26,280 nucleotides of DNA, from assembly GCA_963847625.1 (NCBI GenBank), contig CAWKAR010000036.1, forward strand, positions 1 through 26,280, in the 5' to 3' direction. The translations under genes and the position numbers were made by a program. This DNA comes from a candidate division FCPU426 bacterium (lineage in GTDB: Bacteria; Oederibacteriota; Muellerivitia; Muellerivitales; Muellerivitaceae). Positions 2,382-26,279 of this stretch are shown here, in pieces; the stretch's first letter is position 1, and every line of letters begins with the position of its first letter. Below the pieces are notes generated by a model that saw nothing but the letters and a program-made list of their open reading frames with translations, was not told where the DNA came from and ran no database searches.

Positions 2382-2414
2382 TGACCTTCCCCCAATGTTC
2401 GATCCAAATTTAAG

Positions 2415-3245
2415 TTAGTTAAGGCCCAACTTTTCGGCCTTTGCTTCCATTGGGGTTTTTCCTTCTAAACTGCTGTGCGGTCTCTGCCAGTTATACACCT
2501 GCCTCCACCAATCCACGACTACCTGGGCCTCCGCTTTCGAAAGAAAAATTTCTTGGTTCAGGCACTCATCCCTAAACTTTCCGTTGAAACTTTCGATGAA
2601 TCCATTCTGCCATGGACTCCCTGGTTCGATATATAGCACCTCTACGCCCTTCTCCTCAAGCCAGTTCCTCAGTTCTTTCGCCACGAACTCTGGCCCGTTG
2701 TCCACCCGCATGCACTTCGGCGTCCCGTACTCCGTCATCAACTCATCCAGCGTCTCTAGTACGTCCCGGCTTCTCATCCGCTTCTCTGCCCGGATCTCCA
2801 AGCATTCCCTAAATCCTTCATCCAACACCGTCAAAAACTTCACCTTTCCCCCGAACCATGTCAGGTCATGCACGAAGTCCATCGTCCACACCTCGTTGGA
2901 ACCCAAAGCCGGGTGGGGCCTTCTCCATTCCGTCGGAACCCTCTTCTTCCTGGGTCTCCTGCGCGGTAATTGAAGCCCTGCTACCTGGTAGAGCCTCTCC
3001 ACCCGCTTGTGATTCACATCAAGGCCTCTGCGTTCCAACATCCACAACATCCGAGGGCTTCCGAAACGTCGGTTTCTTTGCGCTAACTTAACCATTTCCT
3101 GCAGGATCACCTGGTTCAACGGATCTTCTGGCTGGGCCTCATATCGAAAACTCGATCGATTTACCCCAAGAACATCACAGGCTCGTCTTTCCGGTACTTC
3201 CTGAGCCTTCAGGGCTTCCACCATGCCTTTTTGCTCCTCGATCAA
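2415..3245 (-). CDS. IS3 transposase OrfB (DDE/rve), in the -1 frame relative to OrfA
   Basis: WTMDFV, RVDNGPEF, PGSPWQNGFIESFNGKFRDECLN, YNWQRPHSSL. Confidence 0.95.
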   Translation of the reverse strand: MIEEQKGMVEALKAQEVPERRACDVLGVNRSSFRYEAQPEDPLNQVILQEMVKLAQRNRRFGSPRMLWMLERRGLDVNHKRVERLYQVAGLQLPRRRPRKKRVPTEWRRPHPALGSNEVWTMDFVHDLTWFGGKVKFLTVLDEGFRECLEIRAEKRMRSRDVLETLDELMTEYGTPKCMRVDNGPEFVAKELRNWLEEKGVEVLYIEPGSPWQNGFIESFNGKFRDECLNQEIFLSKAEAQVVVDWWRQVYNWQRPHSSLEGKTPMEAKAEKLGLN

Positions 3246-3511
3246 TACCCCTTTTTTTTTATGTGCTCTTGGAGAACCTGAATAGCCAGGGCCTGATCAC
3301 CCGCTAACTGCTTGAGTTTCCGGTTTTCTTCTTCCAGCTGTTTGATGCGGTGGACTTCGGAAACTCCAAGGCTTCCGTACATGCGTTTCCAGCGGTAGTA
3401 AGTCTGCTCGGAAATGCCATGCTTTCGGAGAACTTCCTCAACGGCGGGAGCTTTCTCCGCCTCGCGGAGAATAGCCACTATCTGCTCAGATAAAAACCGT
3501 TTCTTTGCCAT
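3242..3511 (-). CDS. IS3 transposase OrfA (HTH)
   Basis: KRFLSEQIVAILREAE...RKHGISEQTYYRWKRMYG followed by the coiled coil LEEENRKLKQL. Confidence 0.93.
   Translation of the reverse strand: MAKKRFLSEQIVAILREAEKAPAVEEVLRKHGISEQTYYRWKRMYGSLGVSEVHRIKQLEEENRKLKQLAGDQALAIQVLQEHIKKKGY
3251..3260 (-). promoter_or_regulatory. -1 programmed ribosomal frameshift site (A9G)
   Basis: Minus strand reads ATA AAA AAA AAG GGG TAT TGA at the end of orfA. orfB continues in the -1 frame, as is canonical for IS3. Confidence 0.85.
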
Positions 3512-3578
3512 CTTTCCCCTCCCGATCTATAATCCAAAACTAACATATTTTTGGATCAGTTTTCGGGGGAAAGGTCAC

Positions 3579-4106
3579 ACCGGAAAAATCTTGATGGGGT
3601 TGGTGGTAATAGCGATTGGGGCGGGCTCCACCCTTTTATGGTGGCCGGGAAAGTGGGGGAAAGTTTTAGACGCGGCAAAGGACAAACCGGTTAACACAAA
3701 CCAGGCCCAAGGCCAGGACGCCCAATACGCGGACATCATCAATTTCGCCGAACGCTTCACCATCATGGCCTTCAATGTGAGTTACACGGACATCAACCAC
3801 CAGGTTGAAAAGGTGGGGAACCTCATGAGCGACAACATGATGAGCTATTACCAGGAGGCTTTCCTGGACCCCAAATGGATCGCCTTCCTTTCGGACAACA
3901 AGGCCTACGTTTCCTACCAGCAGATCGACCGTTCGACGGTGGTAAGCACGGAGGGGAACCATTATTGGGTCAGCGTTATCGGCAAGAACCTTTTTAACTC
4001 GGACGCCAGGGGAGCTGGCTCCCAAATCGAGCTTCCTTTCCGCCTGGTAGTCGTCATTAAGAACGACAACGGGCGGCTTACCGTCACGAATTTTCAAAGG
4101 CAGTAA
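3579..4106 (+). CDS. VirB8/TraK-like conjugative T4SS protein, probably 5'-truncated by the IS
   Basis: Single TM segment (ILMGLVVIAIGAGSTLLWW) followed by a helix-helix-helix then beta-sheet pattern (FAERFTIMAFNVSY...YWVSVIG...FRLVVVI...LTVTNF), typical of NTF2-fold VirB8. The track start at 3414 lies inside the IS. Confidence 0.55.
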   Translation, partial: TGKILMGLVVIAIGAGSTLLWWPGKWGKVLDAAKDKPVNTNQAQGQDAQYADIINFAERFTIMAFNVSYTDINHQVEKVGNLMSDNMMSYYQEAFLDPKWIAFLSDNKAYVSYQQIDRSTVVSTEGNHYWVSVIGKNLFNSDARGAGSQIELPFRLVVVIKNDNGRLTVTNFQRQ

Positions 4107-4107
4107 A

Positions 4108-4591
4108 CATGGAAGAACAAGCGCTACAACTCAACCCGAAATTGGCGAAAAGGTGCCGCCCATCCGCGCAATCGCGCGATGGGAACTTATTGAAGGTCAA
4201 TCCCCGTTTAGCTTGGAAATACCTTGAGGCGAACGTCCGGTTGGGCGGACAAGTGGATAGGGGAAAAGCCATGAAGGTGATCGGTGAGCTTGCGGAAAAG
4301 TATGGGCCGTTTAACGGCGGAGCCTGCCGGAGGAACGTATGGGTTTTGATGAAGTTCGAGTTGCCGAACGCGATTTTGGAATTCCTCAACCGCCTGCATG
4401 GCAGGTTCCCGAAATTATCCGAAGGGCTGGTCTTTTTAGCCGACGCTGACTTTCTTTCGGGGATTTTGGTGATGGTTGTTTGCGAAGAGGACACCAAACT
4501 CATTATCGATGATTTTTTTAGGATTTGAGACCATGGAAGAACAAGCGCTACAACTCAACCCGGAATTGGCGAAAAGGTGCCTCCAATCCGC
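4108..4591 (+). repeat. 60-bp direct repeat (4108-4167 and 4532-4591), 3 mismatches
   Basis: CATGGAAGAACAAGCGCTACAACTCAACCCG(A/G)AATTGGCGAAAAGGTGCC(G/T)CC(C/A)ATCCGC occurs twice, 424 bp apart. Confidence 0.95.
4109..4528 (+). CDS. Hypothetical protein, stand-alone paralog of the N-terminal helical/TPR region of the downstream GGDEF protein
   Basis: First 20 aa are nearly identical to those of the next gene. A further gapless 90-aa block aligns to it with 30 identities by hand count. Tight operon spacing on both sides. Confidence 0.65.
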   Translation: MEEQALQLNPKLAKRCRPSAQSRDGNLLKVNPRLAWKYLEANVRLGGQVDRGKAMKVIGELAEKYGPFNGGACRRNVWVLMKFELPNAILEFLNRLHGRFPKLSEGLVFLADADFLSGILVMVVCEEDTKLIIDDFFRI

Positions 4592-6006
4592 CCATTTGTT
4601 CATGGAAAAGAAGAGGTATTTGGAGGCCTTGAAACTGTTCGACGAGGTGATCGCCAAACACCAGCCCCAAAACGTGGAAGCCTACCTGGAATCGGCGAAG
4701 ATTTACGACCATTACAAGAAACCCCAATCCATCATGAAGGTCATCAACCTGCTTCACGGTTTTTCCCCCAAAACCCCTGAAAGCCTCGTCCTATTGGCCC
4801 GCGCCCAGTTCCTTTCGAAGAATTACTCGGATTGCCAGGATACGCTGAAGGAAATTTTCACCAGGAAAAGGGATTTCTCGGAAGCGGTGGCCCTGGAAGC
4901 CGAGGTAAGCCTTTATACCGGCAAGTATGAAACGGCCATCGAGAAGTTCGAGTCGCTTTCCCAAAGGTACCCCAAAAATTACAACTACCTCACCCTTTTG
5001 GCCCTTTCCCATTGCGCCAACGGCCAGTTCCACCGGACCATCACGCTTTGCACCACGCTCATGCAGGCCGGGGTCACGGACTACCGGGTCACGAAGCTTT
5101 ATGAAATGGCGAAGAAAAAAAAGGAGGGCCGAGGCCCTGGGGAAACTCAAGAAGGTCAAACCCCTCAAGTGGCTTTTCGCGCAGATATTCGACCCGTTCC
5201 TGGAAAAGGAAATGAGGGCGGAGTCGGTCAACCAGACCGCCCAGGAGGACCTTGTACTGGAAACCTTCGTGGACCACCGGACGGGGCTCTTGAACGACCG
5301 GGCCGCCATCCAGCAGATCCCAGCCCTTGCCGTCAGGAGGAAAAACCGGTTCTTCCTCACCATGGCCGACATCGACTTTTTCAAATCCTTCAACGACGTC
5401 CACTACAACCACCAGGTCGGGAACGCCGTTTTGAAAGCCTTGGCGAAAGCCGGCCAGCGAATTTTCAGCAAGGGCAGGATTTGGCGCTACGGCGGGGAAG
5501 AGATCGTCTGGGTGTTGGATGGAACCGAGGAAGAGGCCGTAAAAGAGGCGGAGGAATTTCGGAAGTATTGCGAACAGAAGGTGGGTGAGGAAGCGAACGA
5601 GATCATCCAGAAGGAGGACATCCGCCATTTCACCGACGGCTCGGACCACAAAAAGGACGATGTTTTCACCATCCATTATCCCGTGACCATTTCCCAGGCC
5701 ATCGTGGAATGGGGAGAGGACGGCACCAACCTGGAAACCATCCTTACGGCGGCGGACCACGGCCTTTACGCGGCCAAGGAGAATGGGAGGAACACGGTGG
5801 TTTTCCGTGGAGAGCCCCGGTGCGTTGGCTTAAAGCCGGTCAAATACACTCCCCAGATTCTTGAGTTTCTCCATAAGGAAGCCGTCAAAAAAGGTTCTCC
5901 CAATTGGTGGGTTTACCGCGAGGGATTGAACGAGAAGGCAAGGGAAGCCGCATTGGAATATGCCCGAAACACCCTGGGGGACAAGGAGGCGGCAAGGAAG
6001 AATTAG
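4533..6006 (+). CDS. TPR-repeat + GGDEF-domain nucleotide cyclase (about 490 aa), split by one extra A in the A8 run at 5115-5122
   Basis: TPR helices (YLEALKLFDEVIAKHQPQNVEAY, GKYETAIEKFESLSQRYPKN) lie in the frame of 4533. DHRTGLLN, MADIDFFKSFND, RYGGEEI and ADHGLYAAKENGRN lie in the +1 frame. Removing one A joins them as AKKKRRAEAL. Confidence 0.85.
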
Positions 6007-6039: not shown

Positions 6040-6336
6040 ATGGCTTTAAAGATCAAGGTGACGAGGATGTACCCCTATGAAGGGGAGAACACGAAGGCGT
6101 TTTTCGACGTAAGGGTAGCCATTGCCGGTTATGAGTTCTTCTTCAATGACCTGACATTGGTGAAGAAGAAGGATGGGGATGGTTTATTCGTGGGTTTCCC
6201 TTCGCGTCCGGGAAAAAACGAGGGGGATTATTTCCACTACTGCAACGCCAACAAGAAAGCCAAGGAAGAAATCGAGAAGGCGGCGGTTAACGAGTTCAAG
6301 AAAAAGACCAAGGAAACCGCCACAACCCAGAGTTAA
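6040..6336 (+). CDS. SpoVG-family nucleic-acid-binding protein
   Basis: RBS AAGGAGG. IKVTRM...KAFFDV...FNDLTLV...GLFVGFPSR...GDY follows the SpoVG pattern. Confidence 0.75.
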   Translation: MALKIKVTRMYPYEGENTKAFFDVRVAIAGYEFFFNDLTLVKKKDGDGLFVGFPSRPGKNEGDYFHYCNANKKAKEEIEKAAVNEFKKKTKETATTQS

Positions 6337-6360: not shown

Positions 6361-6636
6361 ATGGATAACCGGAGAAAATGGGACCGCCGAAAGGCCAGCC
6401 AAGATTACCTTTTATCCGACGCAGAAGTGGCCCTCATGGCGGGGGTTCCGGTTAATACAGTTTGTTACTGGCGCTTGGCGGGAATCCTCCATTTCGTCAA
6501 GGTGGGAAGGCATCCCCGCGTTTGGTTGTCGGAATTCCAAAGGACTTTTCACCAACCAAAACCAAATGGGCCTTGGGAACCTTTGGGCGAAAGTGTTAAA
6601 ATACGAACTGGCAGTGACATTAGGAGGAAGCGATGA
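6361..6636 (+). CDS. Excisionase-like winged HTH protein
   Basis: LLSDAEVALMAGVPVNTVCYWRLAGILHFVKVGRHPRV. RBS AGGAGG. ATGA overlap with the integrase. Confidence 0.8.
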   Translation: MDNRRKWDRRKASQDYLLSDAEVALMAGVPVNTVCYWRLAGILHFVKVGRHPRVWLSEFQRTFHQPKPNGPWEPLGESVKIRTGSDIRRKR

Positions 6637-7700
6637 GCGCACCTAATGTTCACGGTTTGCCCCAGTATCTCCGAAAGGATGGTGCTGGGTATTTTATTGA
6701 TTATTCCATAAGGGAAGGAGGTAAAAGAGTTAGGAAGCGGGTTCGTTTGGGCCAAATACCTTTTGTTCAGGCCAAGAAAATTCTGGCGGAGCACATGCAG
6801 GAAATCGCCGCCGGAAAATTTTTGAACAAGGAACAACCGGAACCCACTTTCAACGAAGCGGCGGATTCATTCCTGGCATATTCCGAGGCAAGGAAGAAAA
6901 CCTTTAGGAATGATAAGTTAATAATCGGGCGACTAAAGGCCTATTTTGGCGACCGGCCATTGAAAAACCTAAACGCTGATATCGTTGAAGGTTATTTGAC
7001 CCAACGGGGGAAAGCCGGGCATCTTAAGTACCCCGGAAAACCGCTTTCTAATATGACCCTTAATGGGGAACTTCGTATCCTCAAGTCCATTTTGAATCGG
7101 GCTGTCCTCAACGGTTTATTGGAGAAAAACCCGATCCAGAAGGTCCGGGGCTTCAAAGATGTTTCCCGCGACCGCACTTTGACTCAGGAGGAATACGAAG
7201 CGCTTTTGGGCCGTTGTTCACCCCGCCTTGCTGCCATCGTCCAGTTAGCTTATTGGACTGGAATGAGGAGGGGTGAGATCCTGGGCCTAAGGTGGGACCA
7301 AGTAGATTTAAAGAATAAGGTCATAACCTTGGAAGCCACGGATACCAAGACCCAAGAGAAAAGGGAAATTCCATTGACCGACGAGTTGGCGGAGATAATC
7401 CATAAAACTCCGAGGACCTTAGGAAATCCCTACGTTTTCACCCATAAGGGCAAGCGAATTAAGAACATCAAGACCGCTTTTTGGAAGGCCGTCCGAACGG
7501 CAGGGATCAAGGATTTTAGGTTCCATGACCTCCGGCATTGTGCGGTGACCAACCTTAGGAAAGCGGGGGTTAGCGATTCGGTCATCATGTCCATTTCAGG
7601 CCACAAGACCTACGCCATGTTCAGGCGGTACAACCGGATTGACCGGGAAGACCGTTTAGAAGCTTTAAATATGCTGGCTAAGGTCGAAGGACAGGAATAG
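6633..7700 (+). CDS. int: Tyrosine recombinase/integrase
   Basis: Catalytic set TGMRRGE (R), TKT (K), FHDLRH (HxxR), SGHKT (H), RRY (Y). N-terminal arm-binding-like region. Adjacent to a tRNA 3' fragment. Confidence 0.95.
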   Translation: MSAPNVHGLPQYLRKDGAGYFIDYSIREGGKRVRKRVRLGQIPFVQAKKILAEHMQEIAAGKFLNKEQPEPTFNEAADSFLAYSEARKKTFRNDKLIIGRLKAYFGDRPLKNLNADIVEGYLTQRGKAGHLKYPGKPLSNMTLNGELRILKSILNRAVLNGLLEKNPIQKVRGFKDVSRDRTLTQEEYEALLGRCSPRLAAIVQLAYWTGMRRGEILGLRWDQVDLKNKVITLEATDTKTQEKREIPLTDELAEIIHKTPRTLGNPYVFTHKGKRIKNIKTAFWKAVRTAGIKDFRFHDLRHCAVTNLRKAGVSDSVIMSISGHKTYAMFRRYNRIDREDRLEALNMLAKVEGQE

Positions 7701-7788: not shown

Positions 7789-7833
7789 CTGTCACGCAGG
7801 AGGTCGCGGGTTCGAGCCCCGTCAACCCCGCCA
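7789..7833 (+). mobile_element. att site: displaced 3' half of tRNA-Asp(GUC)
   Basis: CTGTCACGCAGGAGGTCGCGGGTTCGAGCCCCGTCAACCCCGCCA comprises the anticodon loop, T-arm, acceptor strand and CCA. The upstream sequence has no D-arm or 5' acceptor strand. Confidence 0.9.
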
Positions 7834-7879
7834 TTTTTTCTAAGAAAAACTAAGTTTACCGATAATTCCGAAGTATAAA

Positions 7880-8106: not shown

Positions 8107-9161
8107 GCCGAATTCACGGAGTAAGTGCAACACTTCGCCGGAAGACTTCCGCCGGAGTTTTAAAGCCCAAACATTTCCTGGGCCTGTTATTGAGCCATCT
8201 TTCTATGGTCCTGAATTCTTTGAAGGACACTTTAGCAAGATCAGTCTTTTTAGGCAAATGGCGGCGGACAAGACCGATAGTATTTTCCACCGTACCTTTT
8301 TCCCAACTGTGGAAAGGGGCGCAGAAAAAGGATTTTGTACCAAGCACGTGGTTGGTTTCCAAGTGGTTGGTGTTTTCGGTTCCGTTGTCATAGGTCAGAC
8401 TCAGGCGGGCGTCTTGAGGGAAGCGGCATAAAGCGCGGTTGAGGCTATGACTCATTTGGCGAGCGGTCTTTCGTTTGAGCTTTCCCAACTTGGAAAAACG
8501 GCTTTGACGCTCGACGAGAGCCCGCATAGCCACTTTACTCTGACGAGAGACCATGGTGTCGGTTTCCCAATGGCCGAATTGCTTGCGTTGATTGGCGATC
8601 TCGGAGCGCTTATCGATGGAAACACGGCCTGGGATATGGTTTTTGGCGTGCTTACGGCTATGGCCAAATGAGAATCGTCGCCGGTGGTGTCGAACTAGGC
8701 AAGGAATCAGCTCAGTGGCTTCAGCATAAACCCACTGATAGATAGCTTCAGGACCAATGGTTTGCTTAGGCCGTAGGTGACCTAATCGACCTGAAATGAG
8801 TTCTGGAGACCAGCCTCGTTTCAATTGACGACGGACGTAGGCACGAATTCGTTTTGTTTTCAGGCGTAAACGGCGTGCTCGTTGTTGGTTGCGGTCAACA
8901 TACCGTTGATGGGCTCGATGAGAAAGATAATAACCAGAACGGATAGGGGGAGCATTGCGCTTGAGTTCCCTGGAGAGGGTGGAAGGAGACCTCTTCAAGG
9001 CGCGTGAAATTGCTCGAAGGCTAAGACCCTTTCCTTTCAAGACGGATAAATGATCTCTTTCTTCAACGCTTAAATGCTTGTATTTCTTTTTCATAGCCGC
9101 ATATCCTATTCATGCGGCCTTCTTCAGACACTAAGTGTTGCACTTACTTATGGAACTCGGG
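8107..9161 (-). mobile_element. IS30-family insertion sequence
   Basis: 26-bp imperfect IRs: CCGAATTCACGGAGTAAGTGCAACAC (8108-8133) and reverse complement CCGAGTTCCATAAGTAAGTGCAACAC (9135-9160). Possible ACC target duplication at 8104-8106 and 9162-9164. Confidence 0.9.
8114..9094 (-). CDS. IS30-family transposase
   Basis: HLSVEER, RSPSTLSRELKRN, GHWETDT, TYDNGTE, WEKGTVENTIG, LNNRPRKCLGFKTP. The stop codon lies inside the IR. Confidence 0.96.
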   Translation of the reverse strand: MKKKYKHLSVEERDHLSVLKGKGLSLRAISRALKRSPSTLSRELKRNAPPIRSGYYLSHRAHQRYVDRNQQRARRLRLKTKRIRAYVRRQLKRGWSPELISGRLGHLRPKQTIGPEAIYQWVYAEATELIPCLVRHHRRRFSFGHSRKHAKNHIPGRVSIDKRSEIANQRKQFGHWETDTMVSRQSKVAMRALVERQSRFSKLGKLKRKTARQMSHSLNRALCRFPQDARLSLTYDNGTENTNHLETNHVLGTKSFFCAPFHSWEKGTVENTIGLVRRHLPKKTDLAKVSFKEFRTIERWLNNRPRKCLGFKTPAEVFRRSVALTP

Positions 9162-19555: not shown

Positions 19556-20506
19556 ATGAAATATTACGTCGGCGTGACGGATGACGAGTGGTTCCACTTC
19601 CTGGCGGCAAAGAAGCCCGATGAGGTGAATTTCTGGCTGCCAAAAGCGAAAACCGGGTTCATCCCCTTATCTCCCGGGGCACCCTTCCTTTTCAAGCTTC
19701 CTAATCCAAACAATTTCATCGTGGGCGGCGGGTATTTCATCAAATTCAGCTTTTTGCCCCTGTCCTTGGCGTGGATGGCCTTCGGCGATAAAAACGGAAC
19801 AACAACCGAGGAAGAATGCCGCCAGAAGATCCTACAGGGTCGTAAGGGCCAACACGAGGATGACCATGACCCTAAGATCGGCTGTGTGATCCTGACCGAG
19901 CCCTTCTTTTTCGATCGTTCCCAATGGATCCCGGCACCCGCCTATTGGACGCAGACTCTCGTTTCAGGAAAAACGTACGATACCGGGAATAGCATGGAAG
20001 GTTTCAGGCTTTGGGAGGATGTAAAGGCCAGACTTGCGGGCAAGGACGACAAAGAATTGGCCGCTCTTGTGGATTTAGAAAATAAAGCACCTGAACTTCA
20101 AGCTCGGTACGGGGATCCTTTCCTCACCCGGACCCGAATTGGTTCCGGGGGGTTCCGGGTGGTTGTCATGGATGCCTACCAAAGACAGTGCGCCATTAGC
20201 GGGGAAAAGACCTTGCCGGTTTTGGAGGCTGTGCATATCAAACCCTATTCCGAGGCGGGGCCCAACAAGGTGCAAAACGGTATTCTGCTCAGGTCGGACC
20301 TGCGTACCCTGTTCGATAAGGGCTATCTATCGGTCGATCCGCAATTGAAAGTTTTGGTAAGCCCCCGGATCAAGAAAGAGTTTGAAAACGGCAGGGAATA
20401 TTACGCTTATCATGGGAAGGAATTGAAGGTGGTGCCGGAGAAGCCCGAGGAAAAGCCAAGCCCGGAATTCTTAAAATGGCACAATGAAAAACGGTTTTTG
20501 TTGTGA
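19556..20506 (+). CDS. HNH endonuclease, putative restriction endonuclease
   Basis: N-terminal VGVTDDEWF...DEVNFW...FLFKL...IVGGG. C-terminal AYQRQCAISG...LEAVHIKPY...NGILLRSDLRTLFDKG...FLKWHNE. Confidence 0.88.
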   Translation: MKYYVGVTDDEWFHFLAAKKPDEVNFWLPKAKTGFIPLSPGAPFLFKLPNPNNFIVGGGYFIKFSFLPLSLAWMAFGDKNGTTTEEECRQKILQGRKGQHEDDHDPKIGCVILTEPFFFDRSQWIPAPAYWTQTLVSGKTYDTGNSMEGFRLWEDVKARLAGKDDKELAALVDLENKAPELQARYGDPFLTRTRIGSGGFRVVVMDAYQRQCAISGEKTLPVLEAVHIKPYSEAGPNKVQNGILLRSDLRTLFDKGYLSVDPQLKVLVSPRIKKEFENGREYYAYHGKELKVVPEKPEEKPSPEFLKWHNEKRFLL

Positions 20507-21170: not shown

Positions 21171-24100
21171 ATGTCCAAGCGAAAATCCAAATTTTTTATC
21201 GCGCTGTTGGCTTTTACAGTTGGAAGTCTTAGCACATTCATCCCAACCTTGAGTTTCGCCCAATGTACACCGACCTCCGCGAAGATCTGCGTGGCGAGTG
21301 ACGACTGGTCGCAAGTCTATGTCGGGGGCGTTTACCTGGGGCAAGTGGCTTATTGCAACTGGGACGGCACTGGCGTCTGTCCCCCGGGCTGCATCACCGT
21401 TCCTACTTCCCTGATCTCGGGAAGCCAGGTTTATGTCAGTGTCTATACCCAAAACACCGCCTGCAACAATCTTTATACCTCCTGGGATCTGGACATCACC
21501 TGTTCCGGCGGAAATCATTCTGAAATCACCAGCAGTACCAGCGGGGTCAAATTGGATTACATTAGTTCGGGGAATCCCACCACTCCCCCCGCCACCAACT
21601 GGTACGCGACCGACTACAGCACCAGCGGCTGGGGCAGCCCGACAGTGGTCAACACCACCACCGGCGCTTGTTGTTGGGGCCAAGATATTTTTAACCCCGT
21701 GACAGGTCAAATCGTTCCGTATGTGGCCTCCACCAGCGACGGGGATTACAGCACCAGCAATTGCGGCGGTGCCCTTTTTGAATCCGTAGCCACTACCATT
21801 CCGCCCCCCTCGCCGACCGTGGGGCCTGCGACGTTGGCGATCACAAAAAGCCTTGTATCCTCGAGTGAAAGCGGCGGGGACATGTTTGTGACTTTCCAGA
21901 TCGCGATTTGCAACACTGGGGGGCCAGTAACAACTGGTGGAGTGACGCTAACCGACACGCAAACCGGAACAACGGCTTTCGCCTTTGTCGGCTGGATTAT
22001 TCCGGCGGTTTCCACGACTGCCATCGATTACAACACGAACGCCAGTTGGCCGGAACCCGCGGCCAATGGCGGAAGCCCTGCGACTTGGGGGTACTTTCCG
22101 GGGAATACCTGCGTGACCCTTCTTGCCAGTATGGAAGATTATTACTGGGCGGGGAACCAGTGCCAAACGATCACCAACCAAGCCAGTGTGGCCTATTCCG
22201 GCGGCACTAAAAATTCCGGCACTGTGACAGTGAACCGTCCTTGCTTCACTAATACCTATACCCCTACCAATACCTTTACCTATACTCCGACACCCACCGC
22301 TACACGAACCTTCACCAACACTCCTACTTATACCTACACCTATACCTCGACCCAGAATGCCACTAACACCTTCACCCGTACCTACACTTTTACCTACACT
22401 AATACCAACACCCCCACTAATACTTCAACTCCAACGAACACCCCAACCCGAACCAATACACCGACCAACACACCGACCCCCACCCCGACACCGTCACCGA
22501 CCAATACCCCAACCCGCACCAATACTCCGACTCCGACCCCAACCCCCACACCCACAGTATCACCGACCCCCACACCAACAAACACCCCGACCCGGACGAA
22601 TACGCCGACCCCGACGAACACCCCAACCCCGACCCCGACCGTGTCACCTACCCCCACCCCGACCAATACCCCCACGAACACCCCGACCCGGACGAATACG
22701 CCCACTCCGACGAACACCCCGACTCCGACCCCGACCGTCTCGCCCACTCCCACGCCGACCAATACTCCCACGAACACCCCGACCCGGACGCCTACCCCTA
22801 CCCCGACTGTCTCGCCCACCCCCACTCCGACGAACACCCCGACACGGACGAATACACCCACCCCGACGAATACCCCGACTCCAACCCCGACTGTCTCGCC
22901 CACCCCCACACCGACCAATACCCCTACGAATACCCCGACCCGGACACCCACTCCAACCCCGACGAACACCCCAACCCCGACCCCGACTGTCTCGCCCACC
23001 CCCACACCGACAAATACCCCCACGAACACCCCGACCCGGACGCCGACACCCACCCCGACTAATACCCCAACTCCGACCCCGACCGTCTCGCCCACCCCCA
23101 CGCCGACGAATACCCCCACGAACACCCCGACCCGGACGCCGACTCCAACCCCCACAACAAGCCCCACGCCTACCCCCACAAACACACCCACGAACACACC
23201 CACGAATACTCCTACACCCACTCCGACCCGTACGCCCACCCCTACGCCTACGAACACCCCTACCCTGACTCCCACGAACACGCCAACACCGACTCCGACG
23301 ACGACCCCAACCCCGACCCCTACTAACACGCCCACGAGAACCCCTACTCCCACCCCGACCCCAACTCCTACCACAAGCCCCACCCCCACACCGACGAATA
23401 CTCCCACGAACACTCCGACTCGGACACCGACTCCTACTCCCACAACAACTCCCACTCCCACCCCGACCAATACCCCCACGAATACACCCACGAACACCCC
23501 CACACCGACCCCAACGACCACACCCACTCCGACCCCGACGAACACGCCTACGAATACACCGACAAGGACACCGACTCCTACTCCCACAACGACCCCGACT
23601 CCTACCCCAACCAATACGCCGACGAACACACCCACGCGCACGCCGACTCCCACGCCTACCATCACCCCCACGCCCACCCCGACCAACACGCCCACGAATA
23701 CACCTTCGCCGACCCCCAGCCCGACCGGCACCACATCGCCCACGAACACCCCGACCAACACGCCGACTCGCACGAATACACCTACCCCGACTCCCACACC
23801 CACCATTACCCCCACACCCACCCCGACCAATACCCCGACTAATACGCCCACACGTACCCCGACACCCACCCCGACAACGACGCCCTCTCCCACGCCGACG
23901 AATACCCCAACCAACACACCCACGAACACACCCACTCCGACCCCAACGACCACACCCACACCCACCCCAACGAACACGCCCACGAGAACACCCACATCCA
24001 CACCTACTCCCACCCTCACGACGACACCCACACCCACGCCAACCAATACCTCGATCAACACCCCGACGCGCACACCTACTCCCACTCCCACGACGACTCC

Positions 24101-26279
24101 AACACCTACGCCAACCAATACCCCGACCAACACACCGACAAACACACCCACGCCGACCCCGACGACCACACCCACACCCACCCCGACGAACACGCCCACG
24201 AATACACCGACGAGGACCCCGACCCCGACCCCGACGACCACACCCACACCCACCCCGACCAATACGGCCACGAATACTCCGACGAGGACTCCAACCCCCA
24301 CGCCTACCATCACTCCCACACCGACACCCACGAACACGCCCACGAATACTCTCTCGCCGACCCCCAGCCCGACCGGGACCACCTCACCCACGAATACCCC
24401 GACCAATACGCCCACGAGAACGTCCACCCCCACGTCGACTCCCACACCCACGATCACACCCACGCCTACGCCAACCAATACCCCGACTAATACGCCCACA
24501 CGTACCCCAACACCCACCCCCACGACGACTCCCACACCCACGCCAACCAATACCCCGACCAACACACCGACAAACACACCCACCTCGACCCCGACGACCA
24601 CACCTACACCCACCCCGACGAACACGCCCACGAATACACCGACGAGGACCCCGACCCCAACTCCGACGACCACACCCACACCCACCCCGACCAATACGGC
24701 CACGAATACCCCGACGAGGACCCCAACCCCCACGCCGACCATCACCCCCACCCCAACACCCACGAACACGCCGACGAATACGCTCTCGCCGACCCCCAGC
24801 CCGACCGGGACCACCTCACCCACGAATACCCCGACCAATACGCCCACGAGAACGTCCACGCCTACTCCGACTTCCACACCCACGATCACACCCACGCCTA
24901 CGCCCACGAATACCCCAACCAACACACCCACCAACACCCCTACGCCAACCCCGACGACCACACCCACGCCAACCCCGACCAATACGCCGACTCGTACGCC
25001 CACACCCACCCCAACTTCTACGCCCACAGTCACACCCTCACCCACGCCCACGAACACACCGACCAACACACCCACGCCCACACCCACGCCGACTCCGACG
25101 ACCACACCCTCTCCCACCCCGACCAATACGCCTACGAACACGCCGACCCGGACACCCACGCCCACCCCGACGATCACGCCCACGCCCACACCAACCAACA
25201 CGCCTACGATCACACTCACTCCGACCCCCAGCCCGACCGGGACCACCTCACCCACAAACACTCCGACCAATACACCCACGAGAACGTCCACACCTACTTC
25301 GACTTCCACACCCACGATCACACCCTCTCCCACGCCGACCAATACCCCGACCAACACCCCCACGAACACTCCCACTCCGACCCCGACGACGACACCCACC
25401 TTCACCCCGACCAACACGCCGACTCGTACGCCCACATCCACCCCGACACCCACCCCGACGACCACATCCTCGCCCACGCCCACGAATACCCCGACCAACA
25501 CACCCACAAACACGCCCACCCCGACTCCGACGACGACACCCACGCCGACCCCGACCAACACCCCCACGAACACGTCGACTTCCACGTCCACCCCTACACC
25601 CACCATCACGTCTTCTCCGACCCCCAGCCCGACCGGGACGACATCACCCACGAATACGCCCACGATTACGCCAACGACTACGCCCACTCCCACGTCCACG
25701 AACACCCCGACCTCAACGCCCACCCCCACGCCGACCTTGACACCGACTGCGACTCCGACCACCACGTCCACTTCGACACCTACCCCGACTCTGACCAACA
25801 CACCGACGAACACCCCGACGAATACGCCGATTTCGACGTCGACTAGCACGTCGACTTCGACTCCTACCCCGACTCCGACCAACACGCCCATCTTCACGCT
25901 AACATTCACCAACACTCCGACGAACACCCCCACATCCACGAACACCCCGACCAACACTCCTACCCCGACGCCGACGAACACACCCACGAACACATCGACG
26001 CCAACCCCGACTCCAACCAGCACTTCCACCGCCACACCCACTTCGACCAACACCCCTCCCTTCACGTATACGTTCACCCCAACCCCGACGAACACGCCGA
26101 CGCCTACGAATACTTCCACCAATACCTACACATCGACCCCAACCGCCACGTTCACCGACACCTCCACACCCACGAATACCAACACTCCCACGAATACGCC
26201 CACCGTCACTTCGACTTCCACGCCGACAAACACTCTCACCAACACCTACACGCCGACTTCCACATCCACAGCCACGAAC
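21171..26279 (+). CDS. Giant secreted surface protein: signal peptide, Cys-rich lectin-like head, DUF11/Ig-like domain, >1300-aa Thr/Pro stalk; 3'-partial
   Basis: Hand translation from ATG 21171 gives [18 protein letters not shown]...[26 protein letters not shown]...LAITKS...[12 protein letters not shown]...VTLTDT...ITNQASVAY...RPCF, then TNTYTPT repeats. I saw no stop before the window end (1703 codons), which explains its absence from the ORF track. Confidence 0.93.

Follow-up and report, generated by a model that had tools for sequence, protein, structure and literature searches.

The window analysed here, a 26,280-nucleotide (nt) stretch of DNA from a candidate division FCPU426 bacterium (contig CAWKAR010000036.1 of assembly GCA_963847625.1), carries the right end of an integrative element, in which a VirB8-like transfer gene, a short open reading frame (ORF), a gene for a TPR-GGDEF diguanylate cyclase, a SpoVG-like gene, an excisionase gene, an integrase gene and an attachment (att)-like copy follow one another (Table 1; G, C, L, P and X numbers denote genomes, contigs, loci, proteins and public sequencing runs). 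The short ORF, which is the subject of this report, is a chimera built from pieces of the two genes that flank it.

Table 1. Features of the integrative element and the adjoining insertion sequence (IS) in the window.
Feature	Position	Strand	Basis or remark
IS3-family element truncating the window's element copy	2382..3577	-	IS end at 3577
VirB8/TraE/DotI-like transfer gene, 5' end cut by the IS3-family element; donor of the chimera C-terminus (last 20 codons, 4044-4103)	3594..4106	+	
Recent copy of the first ~21 codons of the cyclase, giving the ORF its start	4108..4170	+	Direct repeat
Chimeric ORF, type A of the family, 139 residues	4109..4528	+	Translation, alignments; junctions bridged by contigs of other runs
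Old, diverged TPR-derived part, ORF residues 28-119	4190..4465	+	Alignment, tree
VirB8-derived last 20 codons plus stop	4466..4528	+	hhalign, junction DNA
Second copy of the 63-nt direct repeat, the true cyclase start	4532..4594	+	Repeat comparison
TPR-GGDEF diguanylate cyclase gene, 490 residues in intact copies	4533..6006	+	Here split by an extra A in 5115-5122
SpoVG-like gene	6040..6336	+	Pfam SpoVG, E 2.6e-6, below cut-off
Excisionase-like HTH_17 gene	6361..6636	+	E 3.2e-4
Tyrosine integrase	6633..7700	+	Pfam Phage_integrase, E 4.7e-32
att-like copy, 3' part of tRNA-Asp	7789..7839	-	51 nt at 98% to C16:23553-23603

Residues 28–117 of the ORF align without gaps to residues 6–95 of the TPR-GGDEF protein with 30 identities over 90 positions, as a preliminary description of this DNA had reported, and the similarity is far above the level given by shuffled sequences: the BLOSUM62 score of 114 compares with a mean of 25.6 (standard deviation 4.1, maximum 51) over 2000 shuffles (z = 21.6), and BLASTP returns E = 4e-19. 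Different codons are used at 19 of the 30 identical residues, and the two DNA sequences share 132 of 270 positions, distributed over codon positions 1, 2 and 3 as 44, 55 and 33 of 90 each; together, the codon differences and this distribution form the pattern of protein-level constraint. The match is confined to residues 1–98 of the 490-residue cyclase, confirming that the ORF is a relative of its N-terminus that lacks the catalytic domain. No Pfam family matches the window ORF at E ≤ 0.1 (versus 24 for the parent cyclase), nor does any NCBIfam or PADLOC family, and a weak TPR_8 match (E 0.008) was returned by one of six ORF relatives. The ESM Atlas gave low recognition (1755), with DUF5717 (0.93) and TPR (0.91) as leads only. 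The TPR ancestry of the ORF is clear from its alignment; profile searches do not place it in the TPR family.

The preliminary description had taken the ORF for a stand-alone copy of the N-terminal domain of the cyclase. That view has to be revised: the final 20 residues of the ORF (LVMVVCEEDTKLIIDDFFRI) match the final 20 of the VirB8-like gene (LVVVIKNDNGRLTVTNFQRQ), and the last 20 columns of the two family profiles align with an hhalign probability of 94.4 (E 8.4e-8). The ORF is a TPR::VirB8 chimera, in which ~98 residues from the start of the cyclase are fused in frame to 20 VirB8-like terminal residues, with an identical breakpoint in all three of the ORF types described below. It stands between its two parents in the same orientation as both, and an empty form of the junction also exists. 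Both junctions retain a short stop-to-start spacing with an AGG 9–11 nt ahead of the next ATG; the AGG of the penultimate Arg codon is at this same 9–11 nt distance from the cyclase ATG, as its counterpart in the VirB8 gene is, and is the likely ribosome-binding site of the cyclase. As the ORF joins the 5' end of the downstream gene to the 3' end of the upstream gene and lies between them, we infer that it very probably arose by a tandem duplication of ~350 bp spanning the junction of the two genes. This duplication would have copied both translational junctions, and the operon would thereby have stayed coupled. A diversity-generating retroelement was rejected as the source of the diverged copy, as the substitutions affect all four bases.

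The assembly is repeat-rich and prone to indels, a near-perfect 63-nt repeat flanks the duplicated segment, and frameshifts were assembled both here and on C52, all of which could suggest that the duplication is an assembly artefact. However, contigs from other runs bridge the 5' side (X2, 4024–4221; X8, 4128–4257) and the 3' side (X1, 4487–4680; X3, 4468–4749; X5, 4374–4627; X7, 4313–4666), and homologous ORFs occupy this junction in one metagenome contig and five further genomes. An artefact is refuted by these two findings, and we assign it virtually no probability.

The 63-nt direct repeat, which like the VirB8-derived tail and the cyclase frameshift goes beyond the preliminary description, spans the starts of both the ORF and the cyclase, and its two copies are identical at 59 of 63 positions (94%); three of the four differences from the cyclase start alter a residue. 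The resulting N-terminal extension of 22 residues has a similar counterpart in P0001 and P0002 and none in P0011–P0013. By this comparison the extension is an event later than the formation of the chimera, and it likely supplies only a start.

The recurrence of the chimera was assessed at the VirB8–cyclase junctions of 26 element copies (24 of 25 loci plus L041 and L042; L040, which starts at a contig end, was dropped), which are interdependent, the TPR regions of C14/L027 and C19/L035, for instance, being identical. The position of the ORF is conserved at eight junctions, seven with an intact chimera (the window, L021, L022, L023, L024, L025 and L042) and one with a broken copy (G000:C52), while the other 18 are empty; the two-gene arrangement of the preliminary description therefore recurs in a minority of related elements. 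An empty join was also found in runs X2, X3, X5 and X8. Protein searches added P0001, P0002, P0004, P0005, P0011–P0013 and P0018, together with fragments, and the family counts 13 near-full-length members of 107–140 residues, annotated, where named, as 'hypothetical protein'. Among the 30 matches from a search of 1.84 billion proteins, no long protein aligned over the whole ORF profile. P0053 (229 residues), in which an out-of-frame stretch links VirB8 to a type C ORF, was set aside as a frameshift product rather than a natural fusion.

The chimeras fall into three types: A (the window), B (L021–L023) and C (L024, L025, L042 and C52). The window ORF is 31–34% identical to type B and 21–25% identical to type C, and the N-termini of the host cyclases are 70–76% identical among the types. 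On the cyclase tree the presence of the ORF is patchy, with L033, L029 and L028/L034 empty beside filled relatives. In a tree of the TPR-derived part the 13 ORFs form one clade (95/88) within the element-borne cyclases, with root-to-tip distances of ~0.5–2 for the ORFs and ≤0.3 for the parent cyclases. This tree points to a likely single origin of the chimera. Three independent duplications were considered as an alternative; the approximately unbiased (AU) test excludes one for type A, rejecting its grouping with its own host cyclase (p-AU 0.013), and does not exclude one for type B (p-AU 0.087), with type C outside the test. The chimera is restricted to a single family of elements within one family of bacteria.

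The claim that the ORF is under selection as a protein was also upheld, for one pair of type B. L021 and L022 differ by a non-synonymous divergence (dN) of 0.164 and a synonymous divergence (dS) of 1.41, giving a ratio of 0.116 (Fisher p 2.6e-15), and the neighbouring genes of the same pair have ratios of 0.057 and 0.039; dS between the ORF types is near saturation. F61, P64, P79, A89 and L94 are invariant in all 13 family members, and P10, L12, A13 and L17 are among the most conserved positions of the family and match the parent. A constrained protein product is thus seen at the DNA level for type B and extends by inference to types A and C, and we hold it to be highly likely overall. These data also bear on the possibility that the ORF is an in-frame spacer with no partner, which keeps VirB8-to-cyclase translation coupled, experiences selection against nothing but stops and damaging misfolds, and is in the course of being lost. 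In its favour, the two coupling junctions are preserved, as is the AGG ahead of the cyclase start; VirB8 of L031 keeps its AGGAG though the residue changes; the 63-nt extension has changed mostly at non-synonymous sites; the ORF is absent from 18 of the 26 elements and broken in C52; and close relatives have an empty join. A clean deletion would, however, give the same coupling more cheaply, yet the gene has survived 0.5–2 changes per site, and neither the dN/dS of 0.116 nor the five residues invariant in 13 of 13 members fits a mere spacer, which we consider improbable.

To describe the predicted consequences of the fusion, the parent and the chimera were compared as AlphaFold models. Cyclase residues 1–193 are modelled as all helical, with 11 helices that include one at 48–60 (predicted local distance difference test score, pLDDT, 92). 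The model of the ORF (numbered in register from 4175; pLDDT 76.8; predicted template modelling score, pTM, 0.61) consists of a strand at 4–8, helices at 10–22 and 29–43, a strand at 52–61, helices at 66–77 and 79–92, and strands at 94–105 and 108–116. The ORF spans five of the 11 parent helices, and one of these five is predicted as strand: parent helix 48–60 (TPR helix 3) would, at moderate confidence, have switched to a strand that lies next to the imported VirB8 hairpin. The corresponding sequence changes from LESAKIY in the parent to VWV[YL] or VTWIY in the chimera, and its strand propensity is 1.14–1.28 in type A and most of type B (1.02 in one case) versus 0.99–1.15 in 16 parents. A Foldseek search of the PDB with the ORF model returned nothing at E ≤ 0.001, and the best VIA-align result among 48,161 chains had Z = 4.1 (root-mean-square deviation 3.5, 68 residues aligned), an outcome from which neither novelty nor a change of fold can be concluded.

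The fusion point also creates a 19-residue stretch with a mean hydropathy of 1.46–2.21, versus 0.35–1.29 in the parents. This stretch would act as an inner-membrane anchor, showing a VirB8-like tail, if the ORF had taken on a job unrelated to the cyclase, most plausibly element discrimination of an entry-exclusion-like or incompatibility kind. Known entry-exclusion factors are small inner-membrane proteins (PMC7690428). There are, moreover, three fast-diverging ORF types among elements that are otherwise 70–76% identical, several element copies reside in one genome, and G000 has two copies with the ORF, each of a different type, although this last number is tiny. Against such a role, the insertion-scale sums of the stretch (+1.8 to +5.6, versus −3.0 to +0.4 for intact VirB8 anchors) give it a poor score as a membrane helix, the model buries it as helix 4 and strand 3, and the ORF is missing from 18 of the 26 elements; we regard discrimination as unlikely.

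The cyclase, which the chimera may tune, has intact GGEE, DIDFFK and N-x-H motifs and lacks the RxxD site; RYGGEEI and DIDFFKSFNDVHYNHQVGN are present in the cyclases of the window, L021, L123 and L041, and the GGDEF domain scores above the Pfam cut-off. By these sequence criteria it should be an active diguanylate cyclase. In the window its frame is broken by one extra A within the run at 5115–5122. Contigs from eight public runs were used to check this site, and all five that cross 5115 (X1, X3, X5, X6 and X8, from five studies) have one base fewer at 5115/5116, the other three not crossing it; the intact frame is therefore the normal state of the cyclase, and an assembly error or a change in one strain accounts for the break in the window. 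Three further cyclase copies in the same genome are also intact, and together with the uniformly shorter contigs they make a programmed +1 frameshift unlikely. Close cyclase homologs occur in 12 of the 31 genomes of the host family. The search of genome contigs yielded four close loci among the 80 kept, the remainder being generic GGDEF matches, and that of metagenome contigs only two loci; no relative of the cyclase was found in viral contigs.

The cyclase follows the VirB8-like gene in every copy seen, and even the distant loci L128 and L130 retain the order VirB4, VirB8-like gene, TPR-GGDEF gene. As this tie to the VirB8-like gene holds at loci with no integrase nearby, the cyclase looks like a part of the transfer module. 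The distant transfer-gene cluster of L128 (G001:C5), G000:C61 and L130 (G031:C30) ends in a TPR-GGDEF gene of ~30% identity, has no integrase among the adjoining ORFs listed and is possibly domesticated.

Together with the chimeric make-up, these features suggest, tentatively, that the ORF is a dispensable tuner of the cyclic di-GMP (c-di-GMP) output of the element, which competes for the docking partner of the first TPR repeat of the cyclase. In outline, a duplication of ~350 bp would once have fused the 5' end of the cyclase gene to the 3' end of the VirB8-like gene, leaving the operon coupled, and the chimera would then have diverged fast from this single origin before patchy loss or exchange between elements, as the tree suggests. 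Helix 3 and the N-terminal tail would, more likely than not, have become strands that pair with the VirB8 hairpin, with helices 1–2 and PxLA kept. The kept surface of helices 1–2 may then titrate whatever recruits or activates the cyclase, possibly also in trans on co-resident elements. The partner may be a protein of the transfer machine such as VirB4, which is the natural candidate as the cyclase follows VirB8 in every copy seen.

Several observations weigh against this reading, of which the most serious is that the ORF types (21–34% identical) diverge far faster than their host cyclases (70–76%), where a decoy surface should be more conserved. Conservation in helix 1 could reflect structure alone, and the ORFs do not keep E11, a residue that hardly varies among the parents. 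Of the 26 elements, 18 have no chimera, and as VirB4 and VirB6 are gone from the window's element, a partner from the transfer machine would need to come from other copies. Concerning selection, close pairs of type C are noisy (dN/dS 0.09–0.54 on 3–5 changes), type A has no DNA pair, and the ORF of C52, whose neighbouring genes are also frameshifted, is broken by five single-base insertions and differs from L025 by 33 non-synonymous and 17 synonymous codon changes. The fold model is based on seven sequences with no residue above a pLDDT of 90, and the strand-propensity ranges of chimera and parents overlap. Finally, the AU test does not reject a common group of type B and its host cyclase (p-AU 0.087), and with long branches present the ORF clade could stem partly from long-branch attraction.

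The preliminary description had proposed that the ORF could act as a decoy, as a dominant-negative dimerisation partner or as an alternative sensor for the cyclase. In the second case a heterodimer formed through the shared N-terminal domain would poison the GGDEF dimer, in the way that TrlR acts with TraR (PMC3907764). The paralogy, the adjacency and translational coupling to the cyclase gene and the purifying selection all agree with a heterodimer. GGDEF cyclases, for their part, usually dimerise through a helix that precedes the catalytic domain. With its match to the cyclase ending at residue ~98, the ORF lacks this helix and the DxxTGL region (residues ~190–255), its third helix is predicted as a strand, and its divergence does not follow that of the host cyclase; we therefore judge a heterodimer to be quite unlikely. 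As the pre-GGDEF dimerising helix is absent from the ORF and helices 1–2 with P10, L12, A13 and L17 are kept, the decoy is favoured and the dominant-negative dimer is the less convincing of the two; a decoy for a partner of the cyclase remains plausible. A complex prediction for the ORF (A3) and cyclase residues 1–193 (A5) scored 0.00 in both runs, which is no evidence either way. We also entertain, with considerable reserve, a role in which a newborn alpha/beta fold, formed when two and a half TPR repeats were joined to a VirB8 beta-hairpin and one TPR helix turned to strand, was recruited as a type-specific regulator between co-resident mating-pair-only elements, acting on the c-di-GMP signal or on transfer. 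If true, this would document at residue resolution how a fold arose in nature beside both of its parents, and the ORF would be the first regulator of a cyclase that forms part of a conjugation operon. Such probability as the decoy and its rivals leave falls to functions that we have not thought of.

Chimeras born at a duplication junction have been described. The sigH fusion of S. aureus is a reversible, low-frequency rearrangement that switches on an existing protein (PMC3486894), and the 'creative destruction' model addresses the birth of folds (PMC9907106). The present case resembles both in that a duplication joins parts of neighbouring genes in frame and the predicted fold of the chimera is unlike that of either parent, with some motifs kept. 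It differs from the sigH fusion in that the fusion is fixed, split into three types and placed between both intact parents, with a breakpoint that can be read to the residue and empty-site relatives at hand. The origin of new bacterial genes and folds is usually inferred over deep time; here both parents flank the product, the breakpoint is exact, and empty and filled alleles coexist in close relatives of the chimera-bearing elements. As the product of 115 residues should also be easily expressed, the predicted helix-to-strand switch is directly testable.

Paralogue antagonists on conjugative elements offer a functional comparison, namely QseM with FseA on ICEMlSym (PMC10359603) and TrlR with TraR on Ti plasmids (PMC3907764). 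QseM and TrlR, like the chimera, are small partial paralogues of a regulator, without its output domain, on the same mobile element, and the chimera may by analogy work as they do. QseM and TrlR, however, target transcription activators, keep the parent fold and are defined by their binding, whereas the chimera, whose binding is putative, stems from a TPR-GGDEF cyclase, includes part of another gene and has a predicted fold change. DgcK and DgcL of SXT/R391, diguanylate cyclases borne by an integrative conjugative element, are described as cargo (PMC10672970); the cyclase reported here likewise belongs to an integrative element and has the intact catalytic motifs of a GGDEF enzyme but, unlike that cargo, it is soluble, TPR-led and coupled to a VirB8-like gene in every copy seen. 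The entry-exclusion proteins TraS, Eex and TrbK (PMC7690428) share with the chimera a small variable gene in a transfer operon with divergent types; the chimera differs from them in having no clear membrane anchor or lipoprotein signal, in its presence in a minority of elements and in its TPR and VirB8 pieces. In line with the preliminary description, which had seen in the two-gene arrangement the best candidate for an undescribed system, the ORF has no family name, and no paper on it or on the element was found in a literature search that left subscription journals outside its scope and supplements unread. As far as searched, the chimera is a clear instance, not described before, of a gene born in a mobile element. 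The element family, in which a diguanylate cyclase is coupled to the transfer operon, likewise seems to be undescribed, and one may ask whether conjugation is under local control by c-di-GMP.

The element itself has the integrase, excisionase and att site of an integrative conjugative element. VirB4, VirB6 and VirB8 are present in the intact copies C3, C14, C19, C52 and L126, which additionally carry a divergent helix-turn-helix gene and several genes without assignment beside TrbL/VirB6 and VirB4; a 120-residue gene reads as pilin-like from its size and position, and a 96-residue gene as VirB3-like from its position. In the window copy the upstream transfer genes are gone and only the cut VirB8-like gene is left. 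This gene has a weak Pfam DotI match (E 0.062), and an intact homolog scores 0.97 and 0.94 to TraE clusters and 0.91–0.92 to VirB8/DotI clusters of the ESM Atlas; it has one membrane segment and follows VirB4 in intact elements. The VirB8 assignment follows from this position, the single membrane segment, the weak DotI matches and the TraE, VirB8 and DotI neighbours in the ESM Atlas; its alignment had no sequence match among solved structures. Within the phylum, its profile matches 14 of 99 genomes, of which 13 belong to the host family and one to the same order, and up to five close element copies occur in one genome. The full tRNA-Asp gene lies at G000:C16:23559–23636, and tRNA-Arg was rejected as the integration site in favour of tRNA-Asp.

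A search for coupling proteins gave no match on C3, C14, C19 or C52, the six matches lying on C16, C17, C18, C55 and C56. G000:C16 (L156) and C56 (L157) hold elements with a 60–63% identical integrase, a similar excisionase and a TraD/TraG-type coupling protein, with no mating-pair genes seen; a gene of 250–300 residues in both, without a Pfam match, may be a relaxase. Mating-pair-only and DNA-processing-only elements possibly complement each other as a split system. The coupling-protein element at G000:C16:11082–23636 is flanked by two copies of the window's att sequence, and tandem use of one tRNA-Asp site by the window-type and C16 elements is possible.

The SpoVG-like gene is present in many elements (G000:C14, C19 and C52; L025, L027, L028, L034, L035, L036 and L039) in the form of a diverged tandem pair (~60% and ~87% identity to that of the window), a second small duplication within the same operon. 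The IS3-family element upstream contains an outward sigma70-like site (TTGCCA-17-TATAAT, 11 of 12 matches, 3505–3533, plus strand) that faces the remnant VirB8'–ORF–cyclase operon, and the genome has 18 further near-full-length copies of this IS. Elsewhere in the window, a low-GC (32–35%) locus at 1–2253, with metallophosphoesterase, GAAD and GASH domains across several short ORFs, is likely a frameshifted GTPase-associated conflict system. An IS30-like transposase (HTH_38 plus rve) is encoded at 8114–9094 on the minus strand, with 28-nt inverted repeats at 8108–8135 and 9133–9160, and an HNH endonuclease (PADLOC HNH, E 7.8e-18) at 19556–20506 on the plus strand. The plus strand at 21171–26279 encodes a very long secreted-type protein, open at the window end, in which Thr-Pro repeats make up more than 1300 residues.

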